A stretch of DNA of 17,566 nucleotides from Rhodobacter sp. (GTDB lineage Bacteria; Pseudomonadota; Alphaproteobacteria; Rhodobacterales; Rhodobacteraceae): contig JBFKQC010000079.1 in assembly GCA_041627895.1 (NCBI GenBank), positions 1 to 17,566 of the forward strand, given 5' to 3'. The notes below the pieces were generated by a model. The model saw only the letters and a program-made list of their open reading frames with translations, searched no databases and had not been told where the DNA came from. Shown one piece after another: positions 3 through 17,206 of the stretch (the stretch's first letter is position 1; each line of letters begins with the position of its first letter). Both the position numbers and the translations under genes were made by a program.

Positions 3-653
3 CTGCGCCGCACGTCCAACCGGTATGACCGGCGCTACGTGCTGTGCATGCGGCCCACGGTGATCACCGGGGGCGAGCTGTCGCTGGACATGCTGGATCT
101 GGTCTATAACCCGATCTCCAAGACCTACCAGGCGCCGCTGCAGCTGAAATCCACCGGCGGCGTGTTCATCGTCGACGACCTCGGCCGCCAGGCCGAGCCG
201 CCGCAGGCGCTGATCAACCGCTGGATCGTGCCGCTGGAAGAGGGCAAGGACATCCTCGCCCTGCAATCGGGCGAAAAGTTCGAGGTGCCGTTCGACACGC
301 TGGTGATCTTCTCGACCAACTTCCACCCGAACGAGATTTTCGACAAGGCGGCGCTCAGACGGATCTTCTTCAAGATCAAGATCGACGGGCCGAGCCAGCA
401 GGACTATCTGAAAATCTTCTCGCTGGTGGCCAAGAAGAAGAAGATGCCGCTGAACGAGAAGGCGCTGGTGCACCTCCTGAAGAACAAGTACCCGACGATC
501 AACAACGTGTACGCGAACTATCAGCCGATCTTCCTGATCGACCAGATGATCGCGATCTGCGAATTCGAGGGCATCCCCTACCAGATGAGCGCCGATCTGA
601 TCGACCGCGCCTGGTCGAACATGTTCGTCAAGGACGAGATCATCGTGAAGTAA
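3..653 (+). CDS. MoxR-like (dynein-related) AAA+ ATPase, C-terminal part. The 5' end lies outside the window; the reading frame is open from nt 3.
   Basis: Translation matches the MoxR pattern: VFIVDDLGRQAEPPQALINRWIVPLEEG is a Walker-B/INR-like segment, TLVIFSTNFHP is a sensor-1 TxN segment, and AALRRIFFKIKIDGP is an Arg-finger/sensor-2-like segment. GC3 is high and matches the neighbouring genes. The frame is open back to nt 3. Followed 80 nt downstream by a vWA-like gene, the classic MoxR-vWA arrangement. Confidence 0.55.
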   Translation: MRRTSNRYDRRYVLCMRPTVITGGELSLDMLDLVYNPISKTYQAPLQLKSTGGVFIVDDLGRQAEPPQALINRWIVPLEEGKDILALQSGEKFEVPFDTLVIFSTNFHPNEIFDKAALRRIFFKIKIDGPSQQDYLKIFSLVAKKKKMPLNEKALVHLLKNKYPTINNVYANYQPIFLIDQMIAICEFEGIPYQMSADLIDRAWSNMFVKDEIIVK

Positions 654-733
654 CCGGGATCGCGCCAGAGCCGAGACTCGGCGGTTGCGCGGTTTGATGC
701 TAGCATGACGCACGTCTCGAAAAGGAGGCCGCC

Positions 734-1435
734 ATGCGCCTTTTGCCGATTCTCGTTCTTCCATTGATCTTCCTGACAGTCACACCCGCCCGGGCCTGCG
801 AGTTGAAACTGCTTCTGTCCTGGGACGTCTCCGCCAGCATGAGCGCGCAGGACTACGACATCCAGCGCGGCGGCACGGCGGCGGCATTCCGGCATCCCAC
901 GATCCAGAACATGGTGGCGCTCAATCCCGGCGGCGTCGCGGTGTCGATCCTGCAATGGGCCGGCGAGCACCAGCAGGACGTCTCGGTTCCCTGGGTCCTC
1001 TTGCGCAGCAACCGCGACGCGCGCGACTTCGCCGATGCGATCGAGGCGATGCACGATCCGTTCGACGGGACGACCGGAACCGCGATCGGGGCGGGCCTGG
1101 AATTCGCGATCGGCCACCTCGAGGCCGGGCCGGATTGCGCGCGCACGGTGATCGACATCTCCGGCGACGGCGTCTCGAATATCGGTCAGCCCCCGGCCGC
1201 GATTGCCGACTACCTGCACACGCGCGGCGTCACGATCAACGGGCTTGTCCTCCCCCACAAGGTGAAGATCTACACGCCCGACCGCGACCCCTTCCTGCAT
1301 TACATCCGCAACGTCTCGCGCGGGCCGGATTCGTTCGTGATGTCCGTCAACAGCTACCAGGACTTTCCCCGTGCCATGCAACTGAAGCTCCTGCGCGAAC
1401 TTGCGCCGCGGCTGGCGATGCTCGACGCCGAATAG
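734..1435 (+). CDS. Secreted DUF1194-family protein with a vWA-like fold and MIDAS-type motif
   Basis: Strong RBS AAAGGAGG 5 nt upstream of the ATG. N-terminal signal peptide MRLLPILVLPLIFLTVTPARA. DVSASMS resembles the MIDAS DxSxS motif, with a later GTTGTAIG Thr and a DISGDG Asp. Overall resemblance to Pfam DUF1194 proteins of about 230-250 aa from alphaproteobacteria. Confidence 0.6.
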   Translation: MRLLPILVLPLIFLTVTPARACELKLLLSWDVSASMSAQDYDIQRGGTAAAFRHPTIQNMVALNPGGVAVSILQWAGEHQQDVSVPWVLLRSNRDARDFADAIEAMHDPFDGTTGTAIGAGLEFAIGHLEAGPDCARTVIDISGDGVSNIGQPPAAIADYLHTRGVTINGLVLPHKVKIYTPDRDPFLHYIRNVSRGPDSFVMSVNSYQDFPRAMQLKLLRELAPRLAMLDAE

Positions 1436-1512: not shown

Positions 1513-3969
1513 ATGGCCGCCCTGCCCGCCACCTTCCACGACTGGTTCGCCGCGCGCGGCTGGACGATCCACCCGCACCAGCAGGCGATGCTCGACCGCG
1601 CGGGCGAGCCGGCGCTGCTGCTGATCGCGCCGACCGGCGGCGGCAAGACGCTGGCCGGATTCCTGCCCACGCTCGCCGATCTGGCGGATGGCGGGCATGA
1701 CGGTCTGCACACGCTTTACGTCTCGCCGCTGAAGGCGCTGGCGGCGGATATCAAGCGCAACCTGCGCAGCCCGGTCGACGAGATCGGCCTGCCCGTCCGG
1801 ATCGAGGACCGCACCGGCGACACCAGCGCCACGCAGAAGAGGCGCCAGCGCGCCGATCCGCCGCACATCCTGCTGACCACGCCCGAAAGCCTGGCGCTGC
1901 TGATCAGCTACGAGGACGCGCCGCGGATGTTCGCGGGGCTGAAACGGGTCATCGTCGACGAAATCCACGCGCTGGCGGAATCGAAGCGCGGCGACCAGCT
2001 GATGCTGGCGCTGGCGCGGCTGCAGACGTTCTGCCCCGGCCTCTGCCGCGTCGGGCTGTCGGCCACGGTCGAGGACCCCGCGGGCATCGCGCGGATGCTG
2101 GCCCGTCATCCCGACGCTTGCGACATCCTTCAGGCCGACCCCGGCCCCGAGCCCGACATCCGCATGCTGGAGACCGGGGAAATGCCGCCCTGGTCGGGCG
2201 GCGGCGCGGCCTATGCCGTGCCGGCGGTGCTAAACGAGGTCGGGCGGCACAGGACCACGCTGATCTTTCACAACACCCGCGCCCAGGCCGAGATCTTCTT
2301 TCACAACCTGTGGCTCGCCAATGACGAGGGCCTGCCGATCGGCATCCACCACGGGTCATTGGCCCGCGAGCAGCGCCAGAAGGTCGAGGCGGCGATGGCG
2401 GCGGGGCGGCTGCGCGCCATCGTCTGCACCGGCACGCTGGATCTGGGCATCGACTGGGGCGACGTCGACCTGATCGTGCAGGTCGGCGCGCCGAAGAACG
2501 TCAAGCGGCTGGTGCAGCGGATCGGCCGCGCGAACCACCGCTACAACGCGCCGTCCAAGGCGATCCTGGTCCCGGCGAACCGCTTCGAGGTGGTCGAGTG
2601 CGTCGCCGCGCTCGAGGCCGCGCGCGCGCGTCAGCTCGACGGCGACGCGCGCGGCCCCGGCCCGCGCGACGTGCTTTGCCAGCACATCCTGATCGCTGCC
2701 TGCGCCGGGCCGTTCCGGGCCGGCGAGCTTTATGCCGAGGTCCGCACCGTCGGCGCCTATGCGCAGCTGTCGCGGGCGGAGTTCGACGAATGCCTCGATT
2801 TCGTGGCGACGGGGGGCTATGCGCTCAGGGCCTACGACCGCTGGCAGCGGATGCGGCAGGGCGCAGACGGATGCTGGCGCCTGCGCGACCCGCGCGCGGC
2901 ACAGCGCATCCGGATGAACATCGGCACAATCCAGGATACCGACCTCGTCAAGGTGCGGTTGCGCGGCCAGGCCAGGCCGCTCGGCGAGATCGAAGAGGGG
3001 TTCGCCGCGACGCTGACGCCGGGCGACACCTTCCTGATCGGCGGCCGCATCGTGCGCTACGACCGGATGCGCGAAACCGTGGTCGAGGTCACGCGCGACG
3101 CCGCGCGAAAGCCGAAGATCGCCACCTTCATGGGCACCAAGTTCGCCACGTCCACGCAGCTTTCGCAGCGCATCCTGGCGATGTTCCGGCAAGCCGACTG
3201 GCCCGGCCTGCCGCCGCACACCGCGGCCTGGCTGGCGCTGCAGCGCGAGGTCTCGAAACTGCCCGAGGCCGACCGCATCCTGGTCGAAAGCTTCCCCCAT
3301 GACGGGCGCCGGCATACTTGCGTCTACGGCTTTGCCGGGCGCAACGCGATGCAGACGCTGGGCCTGTTGCTGACCCAGCGGATGGAGTCACAGGGGCTCG
3401 ACCCGCTGGGGTTCGTCGCGACCGATTACGCCGTGCTGATCTGGGGGCTCAAGGCGGTTGCCGACCCGGCACCGCTGTTCCGCGGCGCGGCGCTGCGCGA
3501 CACGTTCGAGACCTGGCTTGCCGGCAACGCGGTGATGAAACGGACCTTCAAGGCCAGTGCGGTGATCGCCGGGCTGATCGACCGCAACACCCCCGGCGCC
3601 CGCAAGACCGGGCGGCAGGCGACGTTTTCCTCGGACATCCTGTATGACACGCTCTGCCGCTACGACCCGGACCACGTGCTGCTGAAGATTACCCGCGAAG
3701 AGGCGCTGAAGGGGCTGGTGGATTTCGGGCGGATCGAAGAGATGCTGGCGCGGACCCAGGGCCGGGTCGATCACGTGGTGCTGGACCGCGTGACGCCGCT
3801 GGCGGCGCCCCTGATGCTGGAGCATGGCCGCGTCCCGGTGCAGGGCGCGGCGACCGAGCGGCTGCTGGCCGAGGAAGCCGCCAGGCTGATCGAGGCCGCG
3901 GGGCTGGCCGAGCCTGCGGCACGCCCCGCGCCGCCAAAGACCGTGCCCCGGCGGCGCGCGCCGCATTGA
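1513..3969 (+). CDS. lhr: Ligase-associated DNA damage response DEXH-box helicase (Lhr-core family)
   Basis: 818 aa. Walker A APTGGGKT, DEXH box VIVDEIHAL, helicase motifs YVSPLKALA, SATV and QRIGRANH. N-terminus (HDWFAARGWTIHPHQ) and length are typical of TIGR04121-type Lhr-core proteins. Followed by a pdeM-like gene. Confidence 0.8.
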   Translation: MAALPATFHDWFAARGWTIHPHQQAMLDRAGEPALLLIAPTGGGKTLAGFLPTLADLADGGHDGLHTLYVSPLKALAADIKRNLRSPVDEIGLPVRIEDRTGDTSATQKRRQRADPPHILLTTPESLALLISYEDAPRMFAGLKRVIVDEIHALAESKRGDQLMLALARLQTFCPGLCRVGLSATVEDPAGIARMLARHPDACDILQADPGPEPDIRMLETGEMPPWSGGGAAYAVPAVLNEVGRHRTTLIFHNTRAQAEIFFHNLWLANDEGLPIGIHHGSLAREQRQKVEAAMAAGRLRAIVCTGTLDLGIDWGDVDLIVQVGAPKNVKRLVQRIGRANHRYNAPSKAILVPANRFEVVECVAALEAARARQLDGDARGPGPRDVLCQHILIAACAGPFRAGELYAEVRTVGAYAQLSRAEFDECLDFVATGGYALRAYDRWQRMRQGADGCWRLRDPRAAQRIRMNIGTIQDTDLVKVRLRGQARPLGEIEEGFAATLTPGDTFLIGGRIVRYDRMRETVVEVTRDAARKPKIATFMGTKFATSTQLSQRILAMFRQADWPGLPPHTAAWLALQREVSKLPEADRILVESFPHDGRRHTCVYGFAGRNAMQTLGLLLTQRMESQGLDPLGFVATDYAVLIWGLKAVADPAPLFRGAALRDTFETWLAGNAVMKRTFKASAVIAGLIDRNTPGARKTGRQATFSSDILYDTLCRYDPDHVLLKITREEALKGLVDFGRIEEMLARTQGRVDHVVLDRVTPLAAPLMLEHGRVPVQGAATERLLAEEAARLIEAAGLAEPAARPAPPKTVPRRRAPH

Positions 3970-7581: not shown

Positions 7582-7713
7582 GCTATCCTCCTGTCGGTCC
7601 CGATTCATCGGCGCCGCCCTGCCGGACCACCAGCGGTTGCCGGCGTGGCGGCGCGGTCGCTGGGATAGGGGGGCGCAGAGAACGGCGAATTGTCCCGAAC
7701 GAGAGCCGAAATC

Positions 7714-9339
7714 ATGCCGAAAAAATACGAAGCGCTTCGCATCGGCAAGTTCAGCTATTCCCTGAAAACCAGGGAATTACAGGATGATAGCGGCCAGCCC
7801 GTCGCGCTGCGCAGCCAAAGCGCCGAGGTCCTGGCCTGTCTGGCGGACCGCGCCGGCCGGATGGTCTCGAAAGACGAACTGATCGCCGCCGTCTGGGCCG
7901 ACACCTTCGTGACCGACGACAGCCTGGTGCAATGCATCGGCGACATCCGCCGCGCGCTCGGCGACGATCGGCACCGGATCGTGCAGACCTTCCCGAAAAA
8001 GGGCTACCGGCTGAATGCCGCGCCGGTCCGGCCCGGGGCGCCGGCGCGGCGGCTGCGCTGGCCGCGCCCTGCGCCCGGTGCCGCGCTGGCGGTGCTGGCC
8101 GTGGCGGCGCTGGCCTGGGCGTTCCTGGCCGGCCCCTTCGGCGCCCCGCAGCGGAGCGGGGACATGCCGCGCATCGCGGTGCTGCCGTTCGACGATTTCA
8201 GCGCCGGGCCGGACCGGGGCTATCTCAGCGACGCCATCGCCGAGGGGATCATCACCGAACTGGCGCGCAGCCGCACCTTCGCGGTGATCGCGCGCAATTC
8301 CAGCTTCCGCTACCGCGTCAGCGACGCCGACATGCGCCGGATCGCCGAGGAACTGGGCGTGCACTACATCCTGGAAGGCAGCCAGCAGAAGAGCGGCAAC
8401 AAGCTGAAGGTCACGGCGCAACTGGTCGACGCGACGAGCGGCGCGCATATCTGGGCGCATTCCTACGACCAGGAGATCGGCGATCTCTTCGTGGTGCAGG
8501 ACCACATCATCCGCACCGTCGCCGACCGCGTCGGAATTCGCATCGAACGCCCCCTGCCCGGCAGCGACCCCGACAGGGTCAATGCGCTGCACCATTACCT
8601 GGCGGGCCTCGAGGCGATCCGGGCGGACTATAACGAAGAGACCAACGGCATGGTCTTCGAAGCCGGCCGCAGGGCCATCGCGGCCGACCCGGAGGCGCAT
8701 TTCGGCTATCTGGCACTGGCCTTCGCCAGCCGCGGCGCGGCGACGTTCGGCTGGCACGGGCTGGACCGCGACGCGACGCTGGCCGAGGGGCTCGGCTATG
8801 CGCAAAGGGCGCTCGACATCGCGCCGGACGATCCCGAAGTGCATTATGCCTTCGCACGGCTCTATACCGAAACCGGCGACCGCGACCTGGCGCTGGCGAG
8901 CTTCGCCAAGGCCATCGCGCTCAATCCGAGCGCGTCCGACTACCTCGTCGCCAGCACCACGCCGATGCTCTACGCCGGCGGACAGGTCGACGCGGCCATC
9001 GCGCGGCTGGAACAGGCGATGGGCATCGATCCGTTCCACGAGGACTGGTATCACTGGCAGATGGGCTGGGCGCTGTGGGAGAAGGACGATTGCGACGGCG
9101 CGCTGGCGGCGATGCAGCGGATGAAGAAGATCCCCCGGGGCGCGCACCGGATGCTGGCGGGGATCTATGCCTGTCTCGGCGAGGCCGACAAGGCGCAGGA
9201 CGCCTACAAGGTGTTCTACACCGACAGCGACGAGCCGACGATTGCCGAGCAGCGCGCGGAGTGGGAGGACATCTGGACCGCGCCGGGCAGCCTGGAGCGC
9301 TGGCTCGACCACATGCGGATTGCGGGGATGAAGGATTAG
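7714..9339 (+). CDS. Membrane-anchored winged-helix (OmpR/CadC-type, trans_reg_C) transcriptional regulator with a periplasmic TolB-N-like domain and TPR repeats. An alternative TTG start lies at 7690.
   Basis: Winged-helix motif SKDELIAAVWADTFVTDDSLVQCIGDIRRALGDD...KKGYRL. One TM helix ALAVLAVAALAWAFLAG. PRIAVLPFDDFS...YILEGSQQKSGNKLKVTAQLVDATSG matches the TolB-N-like domain seen in CadC-like and adenylate-cyclase-associated regulators. The C-terminal region is TPR-like (AFARLYTETGDRDLALASFAKAIALNP). Confidence 0.7.
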   Translation: MPKKYEALRIGKFSYSLKTRELQDDSGQPVALRSQSAEVLACLADRAGRMVSKDELIAAVWADTFVTDDSLVQCIGDIRRALGDDRHRIVQTFPKKGYRLNAAPVRPGAPARRLRWPRPAPGAALAVLAVAALAWAFLAGPFGAPQRSGDMPRIAVLPFDDFSAGPDRGYLSDAIAEGIITELARSRTFAVIARNSSFRYRVSDADMRRIAEELGVHYILEGSQQKSGNKLKVTAQLVDATSGAHIWAHSYDQEIGDLFVVQDHIIRTVADRVGIRIERPLPGSDPDRVNALHHYLAGLEAIRADYNEETNGMVFEAGRRAIAADPEAHFGYLALAFASRGAATFGWHGLDRDATLAEGLGYAQRALDIAPDDPEVHYAFARLYTETGDRDLALASFAKAIALNPSASDYLVASTTPMLYAGGQVDAAIARLEQAMGIDPFHEDWYHWQMGWALWEKDDCDGALAAMQRMKKIPRGAHRMLAGIYACLGEADKAQDAYKVFYTDSDEPTIAEQRAEWEDIWTAPGSLERWLDHMRIAGMKD

Positions 9340-13211: not shown

Positions 13212-13338
13212 TGCTGGGGTCCTTTCCCGCAAAAACTGGTCAGGTCTTCGTACCAATGCCCGGATTGGCTGACAATGCGTCGCCTTGCGCCGTGCCCGCA
13301 TAGCTGCTTTGCCTCGGGAAGCGATCGGCGGGGGCGGC

Positions 13339-14112
13339 ATGGACATCGTGACGACCGGAATACTGGCAAGCCTCGGCGCCGGGCTGATGACCGGGGTCGG
13401 CGCCGTGCCGGTGCTGTTCGGCCGGTCGGTTCCGCAAGGCCTGAACGACGCCTTCCTGGGCTTCGCCGCGGGCGTGATGCTGTCGGCGGCGTTCCTGTCG
13501 CTGATCCTGCCCGGCATCGACGCCGGCGCGGCCGCCTATGGCGGTCAGGCGCGCGCGGCGCTGGTCGCGGCGGCGGGGATCGCGCTGGGCGCGCTGGCCG
13601 TCGCCGCGCTGAACGAGGCGCTGCCGCACGAGCATTTCGTGCACGGCACCGAGGGGCGCGACCCGGGCACGCTCGCGCGGATCTGGCTTTTCGTCTTCGC
13701 GATCACGATCCACAATTTTCCCGAGGGCCTTGCCGTCGGCGTCGGCTTTGGCGGCGGCGACGTGGCGCGGGGAATGTCGCTGGCCACCGGGATCGGGCTG
13801 CAGAACGCGCCCGAGGGGCTGGCCGTGGCGCTGGCGCTGCGCGGGCAGGGATACCGGCGCGGCACGGCGGTCTTCGTCGCGCTAGCGACCGGGCTGATCG
13901 AACCCGTCGGCGGCGCGCTGGGGGTCTGGGCGGTGCACGCCTCGGCCGCGCTTCTGCCCTGGGGGCTGACCTTCGCGGCCGGTGCGATGATGTACATCAT
14001 CAGCCACGAGATCATCCCCGAGACCCACCGCCACGGCCACCAGAACGCCGCGACGGCGGGGCTGGTGCTGGGCCTGGTCGTGATGATGGTTCTGGACGTC
14101 ACGCTGGGATAG
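13339..14112 (+). CDS. zupT: ZIP-family zinc/divalent metal transporter ZupT
   Basis: MDIVTTGILASLGAGLMTG N-terminus. Conserved HNFPEGLAVG and QNAPEGLAVA motifs and an HEIIPETHRHGH segment. 257 aa. The ORF-track TTG start at 13285 is probably too far upstream. Confidence 0.8.
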   Translation: MDIVTTGILASLGAGLMTGVGAVPVLFGRSVPQGLNDAFLGFAAGVMLSAAFLSLILPGIDAGAAAYGGQARAALVAAAGIALGALAVAALNEALPHEHFVHGTEGRDPGTLARIWLFVFAITIHNFPEGLAVGVGFGGGDVARGMSLATGIGLQNAPEGLAVALALRGQGYRRGTAVFVALATGLIEPVGGALGVWAVHASAALLPWGLTFAAGAMMYIISHEIIPETHRHGHQNAATAGLVLGLVVMMVLDVTLG

Positions 14113-14205
14113 CGCCGCCCCACCCGGCACCCGCGGGCGGCCGGCAGCGCACCGCCGGGTACCGGCACGCGGCGTTGGCGAAGCCGCCGCGGCGGCTCGG
14201 CGCGG

Positions 14206-14739
14206 TCAGGACTCCGCGGTTTCCCGGCGCCCGGTCTGCGACGGCGTGCCGCCGACCAGCGCCTCGGCCATCAGGTGGTCGATGAACAGGCTCAGCAGTT
14301 GCGGCCGCCCGCTGACCCCGGCCTTGCGGTAGATCGCGTTGCTCTGCGCCTTCACGGTTCCTTCCGAGGTCTGCCGCGCCGCCGCGATCTCCTGCAGGCT
14401 CAGCCCCTTGATCGCGAACAGCGCCACGTCGCGCTCGGCCGCGGTCAGGCCCCAGTCGTCGAAATGCTCTTCCAGAAGGTCCATGAACGCGCCGGAGGCC
14501 ACGCGCAACTGCGCCTCGGCCCGGGACGAGCGCGCATGGGCGCGGAACAGCATCGTCGTGCCCAGCACGAGCCCCAGCAACAGCCCCAGCGCCGCGCCGA
14601 TTTCCAGCAACTCGCGGGTCTGCCAGCTGATCGGGGTCGACCGCAGGCCGAACAGCCCCGACAGGAGATCCCACAGAAACACCAGCGTGCAGGCCGCCTG
14701 CACCACGATGATGCCGACCAGAACCGGCAGCCGGCTCAT
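14206..14739 (-). CDS. Membrane-anchored LuxR/GerE-type HTH transcriptional regulator with two N-terminal TM helices and no receiver domain
   Basis: TM1 VLVGIIVVQAACTLVFLWDLLSGLF and TM2 LLEIGAALGLLLGLVLGTTMLF. The C-terminal LTAAERDVALFAIKGLSLQEIAAARQTSEGTVKAQSNAIYRKAGVSGRPQLL is a LuxR-type HTH. Lies 19 nt downstream of PepSY-1 and is co-oriented with it. Confidence 0.65.
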   Translation of the reverse strand: MSRLPVLVGIIVVQAACTLVFLWDLLSGLFGLRSTPISWQTRELLEIGAALGLLLGLVLGTTMLFRAHARSSRAEAQLRVASGAFMDLLEEHFDDWGLTAAERDVALFAIKGLSLQEIAAARQTSEGTVKAQSNAIYRKAGVSGRPQLLSLFIDHLMAEALVGGTPSQTGRRETAES

Positions 14740-14757
14740 GCCGCGGTCCCCGTCGCG

Positions 14758-15219
14758 TCAGTCGTCTTCACTGCCGCCACCCGAGCCGGAATTGCCGCTT
14801 CCGGACCCGGAATTCGAACTGCCCGATCCCGAATTCGAGCTGCCCGATCCCGAGTTCGAGCTGCCCGAGCCGCTGTTGTCGTCCTCTTCGTCCTCCGCCT
14901 CGTCCCTTTCGTCCTCTTCGTCCTTTTCGTCCTTTTCGTCCTCGGGATCGTCGTCCGAACCGAACGGCAGCCTGAACGACCCGTCGGCGTGGCGCGACAG
15001 GTCGCGCAGCACTTCGCCGGTCCGGGAGTTCAGGACGATTTCCCGCTCGATCTCGCCCTTTTCGGCCAGGATGCGGGTGCGGCCCAGCCAGGTCCGGCTG
15101 ATCGTGATGCGCTCATAGCCCTCGCGGGTCAGCTGGCGCACCCAGGCATCGGCCACGCCGGCGGCCCAGGCCGCGGCCGCAACCAGCACCATCGCCAAAA
15201 CAAGAAGCGTCTTTCGCAT
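14758..15219 (-). CDS. Secreted PepSY-domain protein with a poly-acidic (D/E/K) plus Ser/Gly-repeat low-complexity C-terminal tail
   Basis: ATG at 15219. Signal peptide MRKTLLVLAMVLVAAAAWAAGVADA. PepSY-like core GYERITISRTWLGRTRILAEKGEIEREIVLNSRTGEVLRD. Tail DDDPEDEKDEKDEEDERDEAEDEEDD(NSGSGSS)x4...SEDD. The track's TTG start at 15234 lies upstream in the same frame. Confidence 0.6.
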   Translation of the reverse strand: MRKTLLVLAMVLVAAAAWAAGVADAWVRQLTREGYERITISRTWLGRTRILAEKGEIEREIVLNSRTGEVLRDLSRHADGSFRLPFGSDDDPEDEKDEKDEEDERDEAEDEEDDNSGSGSSNSGSGSSNSGSGSSNSGSGSGNSGSGGGSEDD

Positions 15220-15240
15220 CTCAGCCGCCTTCAAACGGGT

Positions 15241-15265
15241 ATCCCCGGTCTACAAGACCGGGGAT
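15241..15265. promoter_or_regulatory. Perfect inverted repeat ATCCCCGGTCT-ACA-AGACCGGGGAT (11-bp arms) between the two PepSY genes. Candidate operator or terminator-attenuator.
   Basis: Direct reading of the sequence. Lies 22 nt upstream of the PepSY-1 start and 38 nt downstream of the PepSY-2 stop. On the minus strand it is followed by ACCCGTTTGAAGG, a weak U-tract. Confidence 0.45.
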
Positions 15266-15302
15266 CGGGCCTCAACAGGATCGGGTCGGGGATAGGAACG
15301 GG

Positions 15303-15827
15303 TTACCCGGAACTGCCGCTGCCCTTGCCGCTGTTGTCATCCTCCTCGTCGTCTTCCTCGTCGTCTTCCTCGTCGTCTTCCTCATCGTCCTCTTCGTCGT
15401 GGCCGCCGCCATGGCCGCGGTTATCGTCCTCCTCGTCCTCTTCGTCCTCCTCGTCATCCTCTTCGTCGTCTTCCTCGTCGTCCTCTTCGTCGTCCTCTTC
15501 GTCGTCCTCCAGGTCGTCGCCTTCATCGTCGAGGAAATCCCGGTTCCGTCGGTCGATCTCGATCCCGGTCCGGCCGATCTCGTCGGCCTCGGCGGCCTCG
15601 AATTCCTGCTTCAGGATCCGGCCGGTCGCCAGATCGAAGATCACCTCGATCTTGCGGTTGCCGCGCACCGCCTCGGCCTTCAACTGGGTCAGGCCCTCCT
15701 TGATCTCGATATACTCGTAGCCCTGGCTTTGCAGGTCGGCGATGACCCTGTCGGCAAAGCTCTGGGCAAGGCCGGCGCCGGCGGCGAGCGCGATTGCGGC
15801 GGTCGTGGCAAGGGCAATCTTCTTCAT
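15303..15827 (-). CDS. Secreted PepSY-domain protein with an extreme poly-Asp/Glu tail carrying an HGGGH insert and a Ser/Gly end
   Basis: RBS AGGAGA 7 nt upstream of the ATG at 15827. Signal peptide MKKIALATTAAIALAAGAGLA. PepSY-like core GYEYIEIKEGLTQLKAEAVRGNRKIEVIFDLATGRILKQE. The tail is about 80 residues of (EEDD)n...NRGHGGGH...(EEDD)n NSGKGSGSSG. Confidence 0.65.
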   Translation of the reverse strand: MKKIALATTAAIALAAGAGLAQSFADRVIADLQSQGYEYIEIKEGLTQLKAEAVRGNRKIEVIFDLATGRILKQEFEAAEADEIGRTGIEIDRRNRDFLDDEGDDLEDDEEDDEEDDEEDDEEDDEEDEEDEEDDNRGHGGGHDEEDDEEDDEEDDEEDDEEDDNSGKGSGSSG

Positions 15828-16035
15828 CGGTGATCTCCTGGTCCGGACGGCCCCGCCCGATGCAGGCCCGACGCCGCCAAGCCTGCCGCGTCGGGCCGCG
15901 CCGGGCCATTGGCCCCGGGTTTAGCCGCGGCAGGGCAAACCAAGGATGGACGGGAATAAACCCGGGTTTAGGACAGGATCCCCAGGCGGACACGCCCGGC
16001 AGCCAGGGCGCGTTCAGGGGGCGCGCAAACGAAAG

Positions 16036-16063
16036 GACCGGCCCGGATCGCTCCGGGCCGGCC
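16036..16063 (-). terminator. Rho-independent terminator of the SPFH gene
   Basis: Stem CCGGCCCGGA / TCCGGGCCGG with loop TCGC, beginning 6 nt after the stop codon. On the minus strand it is followed by CTTTCGTTTGCG. Confidence 0.55.
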
Positions 16064-16069
16064 CCGTTC

Positions 16070-17206
16070 TCAGTCGCGCAGCCGCACGACGTCGGTCAGA
16101 AGGCCCTCGGTCCCGTTGGTGACCGTCAGCCGCTCGACCTTGCCGGCGATGGCTTCAAGGGCTTCCAGCTCTTTCAGCCGCAGCATCACCGGGTTTTCCG
16201 CCATCACCTTCGCGGTGTTCAGAAGCGAACGCGTCGCGTTCGTTTCCTCGCGCCGGCGGATAACGTTCGCCTCGGCCGCCTTCTGCGCCTCGACGACCCG
16301 GTTCAGGATCTCGCGCATCTCGCCCGGCAGGATCACGTCCTTCAGGGCGATCTCCGCGACTTCGATCCCGATCTCCGCCATCTCGGCCCGGACCGCGTTC
16401 GCGGCCTCGGCGTCGACGGCGACCTTGTCGGCCAGCAGCGCATCCAGCGTCAGCGCCCCCAGCGTCTTGCGGAACGCCAGCTGCAGCGCGCGGTGCAGCG
16501 CCTCGACGTGGTCCTTGACCGCACGGGTCGCGCGGACCGGGTCGGTGACGCGGTAAACCGCGGCGATGTTGACCCGCAGCGTGACGCGGTCGCGGGTCAG
16601 GATCTCCTGCCCGGCCACGTCATGGGTCCGCCAGCGGGTGTCCACCAGCCTGACCTCGACCTTGCGGCCGACATCCCAGACCCAGTGCGCCCCCGGCCCC
16701 AGCGTGCCCGCCTCGGCGCCGTCGACCGTCATCAGGCCGACATGCGCCTCCGGCACCTCGGTGCGGACCATCGCCACCGTCCCCGGCGCGCGCTCCAGCC
16801 GCTTGGCCAGCGCCGCCGGAACCGCCAGCGTGCCCGTCAGGTCATGCGCCTCGGCCGTCCACGGCCCCGCCGCGGTCCAGTAGGTCGCCCGCGCCGCCGG
16901 GCGCAGCACCTCGTGAAGCCGCCCCTCGCGGTGCACGATGACCACCTCGTCCGGACCGGCCTCGATCCGGGTCAGGTGCCGTTCGGCGAGATCGGCATGA
17001 TCGCGCCACAGCGCGTCCTCGTAGGCGGACGTGAAACGGAGACGGTCCAGATCGTGCACCTCGCGCAGCGTGGTCCGGCGGTTCAGCCAGTAGACACCGG
17101 CGCCCAGGATCGTCTCGATCCGCCCCCGGCGCAGGACGAGCGCGCGCTCGCGCTCGGTCACGGTGATCCGGTCATGGCCGGTCAGGTATTCGATAAGCCG
17201 CATCAT
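16070..17206 (-). CDS. SPFH/Band-7 (slipin-like) family protein, apparently without an N-terminal TM helix and with an extra N-terminal partial SPFH-like segment
   Basis: RBS AAGGAGA upstream of ATGATG at 17206. The C-terminal half (TRDRVTLRVNIAAVYRVTDP...IEVAEIALKDVILPGEMREILNRVVEAQKAAEA...) fits the SPFH-domain pattern. N-terminal residues 10-60 (ERALVLRRGRIETILGAGVYWLNRRTTLREVHDLDRL) resemble the start of a second SPFH unit. Confidence 0.65.
   Translation of the reverse strand: MMRLIEYLTGHDRITVTERERALVLRRGRIETILGAGVYWLNRRTTLREVHDLDRLRFTSAYEDALWRDHADLAERHLTRIEAGPDEVVIVHREGRLHEVLRPAARATYWTAAGPWTAEAHDLTGTLAVPAALAKRLERAPGTVAMVRTEVPEAHVGLMTVDGAEAGTLGPGAHWVWDVGRKVEVRLVDTRWRTHDVAGQEILTRDRVTLRVNIAAVYRVTDPVRATRAVKDHVEALHRALQLAFRKTLGALTLDALLADKVAVDAEAANAVRAEMAEIGIEVAEIALKDVILPGEMREILNRVVEAQKAAEANVIRRREETNATRSLLNTAKVMAENPVMLRLKELEALEAIAGKVERLTVTNGTEGLLTDVVRLRD

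Follow-up and report, generated by a model that had tools for sequence, protein, structure and literature searches.

A conserved three-gene operon of Rhodobacterales encoding a membrane-anchored LuxR-type regulator and two exported PepSY-like proteins with acidic tails

A 17.5-kb stretch of Rhodobacter sp. DNA (contig JBFKQC010000079.1; hereafter, the window) carries, between positions 14206 and 15827 of its minus strand, two adjacent genes for small exported proteins with acidic tails (A and B) followed by a gene for a small membrane-bound regulator (R). The locus raises the question of whether these genes form a functional unit and, if so, what that unit would sense and control. Here we show that A-B-R is a real three-gene operon, uncharacterised and conserved across Rhodobacterales, and that a palindromic operator precedes it. 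By linking gene order, operator architecture, domain families, predicted topology, and charge patterns, we arrive at a tentative reading, to which we assign a probability of roughly 0.45, in which the operon, typical of Rhodobacterales, encodes a one-component envelope sensor that regulates its own expression and has polyanionic proteins in the periplasm as accessories or effectors. The initial annotation of the window had not recognised the arrangement as a described system, and searches of the open-access literature yielded no account of the module, although one may exist in a subscription journal.

Operon structure, conservation and operator

The features of the operon and its upstream region are as follows.

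14206..14739, minus strand: gene R, 177 amino acids
14758..15219, minus strand: gene B, 153 amino acids from the likelier ATG at 15219; identical to database protein P0121
15241..15265, minus strand: A-B stem-loop, 11 bp, GAUCCCCGGUC-UUG-UAGACCGGGGAU, in the centroid structure
15303..15827, minus strand: gene A, 174 amino acids
15909..15923, minus strand: operator site 3, TAAACCcggGGCCAA, starting 33 nt after site 1
15936..15949, minus strand: operator site 2, degenerate CCATCCTTGGTTTG, right half-site GGTTT kept (read from the sequence)
15957..15970, minus strand: operator site 1, perfect palindrome TAAACCCGGGTTTA, core TAAAC-N4-GTTTA

Open reading frame (ORF) calls agreed exactly with the coordinates at which three co-oriented genes had initially been annotated. 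The B frame extends to 14758..15234 (minus strand) if an alternative TTG start at 15234 is used. The G+C content of third codon positions (GC3) is 0.82-0.93 in the coding frames of A, B, and R and lower in the other frames, and a purine-rich ribosome-binding motif can be read ahead of each start. The close adjacency reported for B and R stands, although the gap measures 18 nt rather than 19. Upstream, the strong terminator of an SPFH/Band_7 gene lies at 16065-16034; the three genes therefore have an upstream region of their own, and the operon is isolated.

The exact R sequence had no match in public assemblies, and homologues were used instead. Relatives of R are encoded in at least 591 stretches of the species-representative genomes scanned, and the family is tight, with 60-77% identity across many genera of Rhodobacterales. 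The best 80 of these relatives all belong to Rhodobacterales/Paracoccaceae, except for one metagenome-assembled genome (MAG) labelled Phyllobacteriaceae (L034), and an anticipated reach of the module into Rhizobiales was thus not borne out among them. Comparative analyses were performed on 84 loci, comprising the window and 83 fetched stretches carrying R relatives (L-numbered below), in which ORFs were called and then searched with profiles. In 84 of 84 loci, the gene immediately upstream of R is of the B type and co-oriented with it, the gap typically being ~30 nt. An A-type paralogue precedes B in 54 of the 84; of the 26 other informative loci, at least 12 have an acidic secreted A-like protein in the A position, giving A or an A-like protein in at least 66 of ~80. 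Given that the same arrangement recurs in every locus, these features lie far beyond chance, and the neighbourhood is a conserved one rather than a coincidence. Further out, a search with the N-terminal 97 residues of R reached a distant relative (31% identity) whose upstream gene ends in ...DDDHDVEAGDD; the transmembrane-hairpin part of R defines a small family of 199 cluster representatives (E<=1e-3), mostly of 160-200 amino acids.

An operator was located through k-mer enrichment in the upstream regions, which pointed to GGTTTATGC/GCATAAACC. Site 1 (TAAACCCGGGTTTA) has a single match in the window, with 0.03 expected. Across the family the architecture is fixed, with site 1 reading gcaTAAAC-N4-GTTTAtgc and site 3 reading TAAACC-N3-GGTCAAT and starting 32-33 nt after site 1. 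Site 2 appears in other loci, ~20 nt beyond site 1, as a second GGTTTA or as CAAACC-N3-GGTCTA, a half-site or an imperfect palindrome. With at most one mismatch allowed, 71 of 84 loci have the core palindrome upstream of the module, against 6 matches elsewhere in 781 kb; most of the loci lacking it are truncated or have two mismatches. When metagenomes were scanned for site 1 together with site 3, 120 stretches were returned, many of them low-GC chance matches. In the subset with a GC content of at least 0.55, A and/or B lies directly downstream in 16 of 26 stretches, 9 of these 16 also having R on the contig; the remaining stretches are truncated or have the operator in front of a further acidic protein of the PepSY-like type, genes of any other class being absent.

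Since the palindrome and the module co-occur, and given the general behaviour of GerE-type dimers, R is the candidate binder of the operator; that R binds the palindromes and autoregulates the operon would be the simplest reading.

Three further loci show variations on this arrangement. In L169, the operator (376-427) precedes a different acidic secreted protein (566-1096, plus strand), which combines the domain LTVERLRLRGDGSVRVEATTADGERVRVIVKDGEVRYRIKD with a Ser/Asp tail, so that divergent PepSY-like proteins can occupy the regulated slot. L196 carries a full two-site copy of the operator at 337-390 (minus strand), downstream of R and co-oriented with it; the metagenome contig runs for another 336 nt, and this extra copy may belong to a second regulated gene or to a tandem module. 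L063 holds a third PepSY-like gene (1785-2216, plus strand) ~2 kb upstream of R, with an operator-like TAAACGAAGGTTTA at 999, ~800 nt before it, which suggests a local expansion of the A/B family.

No consensus promoter was recognised in the region by a sigma-70 scan. The leader that runs from operator site 3 to the start codon of A (15828-15915, minus strand) adopts a very stable predicted fold (-54.8 kcal/mol, z -2.46), and an Rfam scan of 14000-16200, leader included, returned no known RNA family. In the A-B spacer, a stem of at least 7 bp is found in 51 of 52 loci, often as GGCCCCGGTCTTGCCGGGGCC. This hairpin may act as a partial terminator that limits read-through, so that more A is made than B and R, or may make the A message more stable. 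Around it, a TTGCCG...CATAGT pair present in some loci could, as far as its sequence goes, serve as an internal promoter.

The three proteins and their chromosomal context

The layout of R is as follows.

Residues 3-30: first transmembrane helix (TM1), from the AlphaFold model and hydrophobicity
Residues 31-38: periplasmic loop (P36 and W39 conserved), short, about 8-12 residues
Residues 39-96: continuous helix in the AlphaFold model, comprising the second transmembrane helix (TM2, ~43-67) and a cytoplasmic stalk of ~30 residues
E43 and E46: conserved, at the periplasmic end of helix 39-96

The initial annotation described R as two transmembrane helices joined to a LuxR/GerE helix-turn-helix (HTH), forming a one-component unit with neither kinase nor receiver, and the analysis bears out each of these points. 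Hydrophobic segments span residues 1-30 and 43-67, and a GerE/LuxR HTH (PF00196) occupies residues 98-150 with a score of 28.2 bits, above the Pfam cutoff of 23.5. Profile searches found neither a receiver (no Response_reg match) nor a ligand-binding domain in R, whose N-terminus is the transmembrane hairpin, and no kinase occurs among the conserved neighbours. In the AlphaFold (AF2) model, which has a predicted local distance difference test score (pLDDT) of 87, TM2 and the stalk form one unbroken predicted helix leading to the HTH, itself predicted as a four-helix bundle (100-110, 115-121, 126-140, and 145-162; pLDDT 95-98). Because there are two transmembrane helices and the DNA-binding domain is necessarily cytoplasmic, the loop faces the periplasm. 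In an alignment of 24 orthologues, the invariant or near-invariant residues of the hairpin are Q14, F21, D24 (TM1), G31, P36, W39 (loop), and R42, E43, E46 (where the TM2 helix begins on the periplasmic side). A small-residue motif (GAALGLxLG) lies in TM2, and the stalk (E75, L78, ASGAF, E91, F93, W96) and the HTH are highly conserved. Two other assignments of R were considered and rejected: membership of the LIC13292 family (NF047608), its best NCBIfam match, scores far below cutoff (58.4 bits against 200) and aligns the HTH half only (residues 84-159), and a role as a defence-system component drew from PADLOC a weak HTH-like similarity only (residues 92-140).

The two exported proteins are laid out as follows.

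A, residues 1-21: signal peptide (hydrophobic stretch 3-22), Sec-type, with KK
A, residues about 23-83: PepSY_2-like domain, acidic
A, residues 85-98: conserved motif GRTGIEI..RDF, between domain and tail
A, residues 99-174: Asp/Glu-rich tail of ~75 residues, net charge about -55, with an HGGGH insert
B, N-terminus: signal peptide with RK in the window's B and RR in most relatives
B, residues about 19-87: PepSY-like domain, basic
B, C-terminus: tail, Asp/Glu-rich, then (NSGSGSS)n, ending in EDD; net charge about -17 in the window

The signal peptides, the acidic tails, and the HGGGH insert agree with what had been annotated, and the NSGSGSS repeats of the B tail are likewise present, although they number three units plus two variant units rather than four identical ones. 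Both tails are encoded by tandem DNA repeats, of 12 nt and 21 nt, the latter encoding the NSGSGSS units. Whether the folded domains are PepSY domains, as had been stated for both proteins, required closer evaluation. The PepSY_2 score of the window's A is 19.1 bits, under the Pfam cutoff of 24.3, so that the gathering threshold of PF03413/PF13670 is not reached, and the Pfam profile search returned no PepSY match for the window's B. At E<0.1, PepSY_2 matches 40 of 82 B domains (best 3.5e-5) and 27 of 40 A domains (best 4.2e-7), all below threshold. A direct comparison of the two domain families gives an hhalign probability of 99.4% (E 3.5e-21), and A and B are, judged by sequence, clear paralogues. 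An AlphaFold model of B built from 142 sequences predicts a helix packed on four antiparallel strands, which is the PepSY topology, with a domain pLDDT of 89-97; a single helix (4-33) runs from the signal peptide into the domain helix (~24-33) and is followed by strands 37-42, 48-54, 57-63, and 70-77. A Foldseek search of this model against the PDB gave no significant match, and the B-domain profile found only chance-level matches among PDB sequences, with no sequence match to solved PepSY structures. We therefore call the domains PepSY-like on the strength of the sub-threshold family matches, the homology of A with B, and the predicted fold, the structure and PDB searches being without significance; PepSY membership is supported but not proven.

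B belongs to a family of about 2530 members (90% clustering), named in databases 'hypothetical' or, in a few cases, 'PepSY domain-containing'. Its domain is well conserved, with the consensus QLRxQGFxxIxVxRTLLGRVRIxA....REIIxNPRTGEILRD and invariant Arg, Thr, and Gly positions. A twin-arginine motif, typically KRREFLxGL (RR followed by hydrophobic residues), is present in 124 of 142 B-family signal peptides, and export by the twin-arginine translocation (Tat) pathway is therefore predicted for the family. The A family is marked by an additional motif, GRTG(V/I)E...RDF, separating domain from tail. Family medians of net charge are +2 for the folded domain of B and -4 for that of A, and -35 and -21.5 for the tails of A and B, respectively. 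Tail sequences are not conserved; those of A are almost always strongly acidic, about half of all tails end in DD, and His counts vary without conservation from 0 to 11, with His present in some A tails. It is important to note that tails of B or A in L082, L061, L015, L050, and L083 contain X/N runs or non-acidic switches such as QRQRQR, which are likely assembly gaps or frameshifts in repetitive DNA and add slight noise to the tail statistics.

Along the chromosome, the usual order is HU/IHF-lapA-trpF-trpB-[A]-B-R; after R come a convergent DUF2237 gene, a member of the beta-lactamase family (Pfam Beta-lactamase), pth, and L25. A trpB-like gene lies at about -2.6 kb in 70 of 84 loci. The window keeps pth and L25 nearby, but has the Band_7 gene upstream and a ZIP/ZupT-like gene (13285-14112, plus strand) convergent to R downstream. 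Comparison of 14758-17206 with L001-L083 indicates that the SPFH/Band_7 gene stands in place of trpF-trpB through a local rearrangement. ZIP, Band_7, and LldD were considered as functional partners and rejected, as they occur near R in 1, 2, and 8 of the 83 other loci, respectively, at varying positions. Elsewhere in the window, a 549-amino-acid ORF (7690-9339, plus strand) combines an N-terminal OmpR-type winged helix (Trans_reg_C, 35-108) with TPR repeats, a ToxR/CadC-like one-component layout that, going by its domains, would be a second kinase-free regulator in the window. An 818-amino-acid Lhr-like helicase (1513-3969, plus strand; DEAD, Helicase_C, WH_Lhr, DEAD_assoc) is unrelated to the module.

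Proposed mechanism and alternative readings

In the reading that we favour, the module most likely senses an envelope signal. R would be anchored in the inner membrane by its N-terminal hairpin, with the cytoplasmic HTH held at the end of the long, rigid helix that continues from TM2, and, as a dimer or oligomer, would most likely bind the three TAAAC-N4-GTTTA-type sites upstream of A and so control the operon. A (Sec-exported, with an acidic domain) and B (mostly Tat-exported, with a basic domain) would both reside in the periplasm and expose long, disordered polyanionic tails. B, possibly paired with A through complementary charge, would contact the loop and transmembrane interface of R (D24, P36, W39, E43, E46) and modulate it, in a manner resembling the action of ToxS on ToxR or of CpxP and ZraP on their kinases, and A, whose gene precedes the conserved hairpin, would be the regulated product made in abundance. 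A charge-related condition of the envelope is the probable signal: the tails would titrate free multivalent cations, cationic compounds, or ionic strength. Multivalent cations are plausible, and a precedent exists in acidic PepSY proteins that bind lanthanides, uranyl or iron (PMC9988556; PMC8963506). A more specific version of this scheme, which we put forward as speculative and probably wrong, is a closed homeostat of periplasmic charge, in which R would read the balance of free multivalent cations and polyanion through the Tat-exported basic B and would adjust the amount of secreted polyanion A, with the acidic tail of B or the acidic A competing with the acidic loop of R for B.

Several observations weigh against the envelope-sensor reading. 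The periplasmic loop of R, at only ~8-12 residues, offers a small docking surface. No regulon beyond the operon was seen within ~5 kb flanks and with a stringent two-site pattern. The PepSY assignment is sub-threshold in Pfam, and structure searches do not discriminate; the window's own B carries RK instead of RR. The B tails of L006, L013, L020, L037, and L081 are rich in Gly and Ser and poor in acidic residues, so that polyanion chemistry is not a strict feature of B; this weakens a simple metal-buffer reading for that protein. Finally, the binding of the operator by R, the contact of B or A with R and of A with B, the direction of regulation, and the ligand are inferred rather than supported by direct evidence.

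In a second reading, A and B would be effectors only: regulated polyanions of the periplasm that store or buffer cations, contribute to charge and osmotic balance, or act at the surface or in a matrix, and that make no contact with R. R would sense alone through its transmembrane hairpin, responding to membrane state or to a cation bound at D24/E43/E46. This is a possibility that we consider doubtful but worth holding. The operator was found only at the A-B-R operon, which makes the operon's own proteins the sole demonstrated candidate output; the hairpin of R contains conserved polar and acidic residues; and the tails drift in sequence while keeping their composition, as is typical of a bulk physicochemical function. 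However, the conservation of the B domain, with its invariant Arg, Thr, and Gly, and its tight coupling to R (median gap ~30 nt) suggest a specific partner, and the predicted Tat export and basic domain of B, in which it differs from A, suggest distinct roles for the two proteins. In a third reading, control would be by proteolysis: the PepSY proteins would decide whether a protease of the periplasm or membrane reaches membrane-bound R, by shielding or exposing it, and R would be governed by its stability or by release from the membrane, as in ToxS/ToxR, TcpH/TcpP, and anti-sigma cascades. PepSY domains were first proposed as peptidase inhibitors, a proposal cited in PMC9988556, and this fits two PepSY-like proteins, a membrane-anchored R with a conserved loop, and an accessory gene directly upstream of R and co-transcribed with it in 84 of 84 loci. 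We nevertheless regard this explanation as unlikely, given that no protease gene occurs among the conserved neighbours (trpF, trpB, DUF2237, pth), that it leaves the polyanionic tails and the opposite domain charges unexplained, and that a freed R would keep its transmembrane helices unless cut within the stalk.

The initial annotation had taken the neighbouring ZIP importer as a pointer to a divalent-cation theme with periplasmic metal buffering; on such a reading, the tails would buffer Zn2+/Ca2+ and R would report to metal transport genes such as ZIP. A ZIP/ZupT-like gene convergent to R, the His residues in some A tails, and the ability of acidic PepSY proteins to bind metals (PMC9988556) speak for zinc or divalent-metal homeostasis, but ZIP adjoins R in just one of the 83 other loci, an Actibacterium MAG (L016, at ~+546 from the R start), and its position in that locus and the window may stem from shared ancestry of the two genomes, not from function. 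The adjacency of the zinc importer is therefore lineage-specific, and the pointer did not hold up. In addition, no operator lies near ZIP (the sole match in the window being site 1), the His content of the tails is not conserved, and the conserved neighbours are housekeeping genes, all of which makes this explanation very improbable. It is scarcely credible that the three are unrelated small genes in coincidental adjacency or low-complexity ORF artefacts; the tails are indeed low-complexity DNA repeats and B by itself lacks a Pfam match, but such an origin is refuted by the conservation (84 of 84 loci; a B family of 2530 members), and GC3 supports the coding frames, the B domain model is confident, and the promoter carries a dedicated operator.

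Significance and comparison with known systems

The module sits in the core chromosome of Rhodobacterales, which are abundant marine and freshwater bacteria, and despite this wide distribution its three proteins are annotated merely as 'hypothetical' or 'helix-turn-helix regulator'. It would offer a compact example of kinase-free transmembrane signalling, in which a two-helix hairpin rigidly coupled to a LuxR HTH works with soluble PepSY partners. If the tails bind cations, the module would widen the part in metal biology that is emerging for PepSY proteins; and if the charge homeostat were true, A would be a protein counterpart of the anionic periplasmic glucans and R would represent a new class of kinase-free, membrane-tethered LuxR sensor.

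Among described PepSY proteins, the closest in character are the acidic UipA and LanP (lanpepsy), whose ligands are hard cations (lanthanides, uranyl or iron), UipA being encoded beside the UipRS two-component system (PMC9988556; PMC8963506). Both resemble A and B in being exported or extracytoplasmic and in their high content of Asp and Glu. They differ in having tandem PepSY domains that bind metal through folded acidic faces, whereas A and B have single domains and carry their charge mostly in disordered tails; the B domain is basic.

On the side of the regulator, NarL/FixJ response regulators and LuxR solos share with R the four-helix GerE/LuxR DNA-binding domain and palindromic target sites, but R is membrane-anchored and has neither a receiver nor an autoinducer-binding domain. 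The LIC13292 family is similar in length (166 against 177 amino acids) and in its C-terminal HTH, R not being a member, and no literature on LIC13292 was found among open-access papers. CpxP, ZraP, and Spy, which are small and periplasmic, modulate the very system that controls their genes, so that each is both effector and feedback element. Their targets are histidine kinases and their folds are helical and unrelated to PepSY, whereas A and B are PepSY-like, and none of them is known to have a polyacidic tail as long as those of A and B.

A functional parallel exists with ToxR-ToxS, TcpP-TcpH, and CadC, which, like R, combine a DNA-binding domain and a membrane anchor in one polypeptide with no kinase or receiver, and in which, as in A-B-R, a periplasm-facing accessory protein is co-transcribed. 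ToxR-type regulators, however, have an N-terminal OmpR-type winged helix, a single transmembrane segment, and a folded periplasmic sensor, whereas R has a C-terminal GerE HTH, an N-terminal transmembrane hairpin, and a loop of ~8-12 residues, and the accessory proteins of A-B-R are, unlike those of the ToxR type, soluble PepSY-like proteins with polyanionic tails. The module is uncharacterised, clearly real, and widespread, and resembles known membrane-integrated regulators while differing from them in DNA-binding family, topology, the lack of a periplasmic domain, and accessory proteins.

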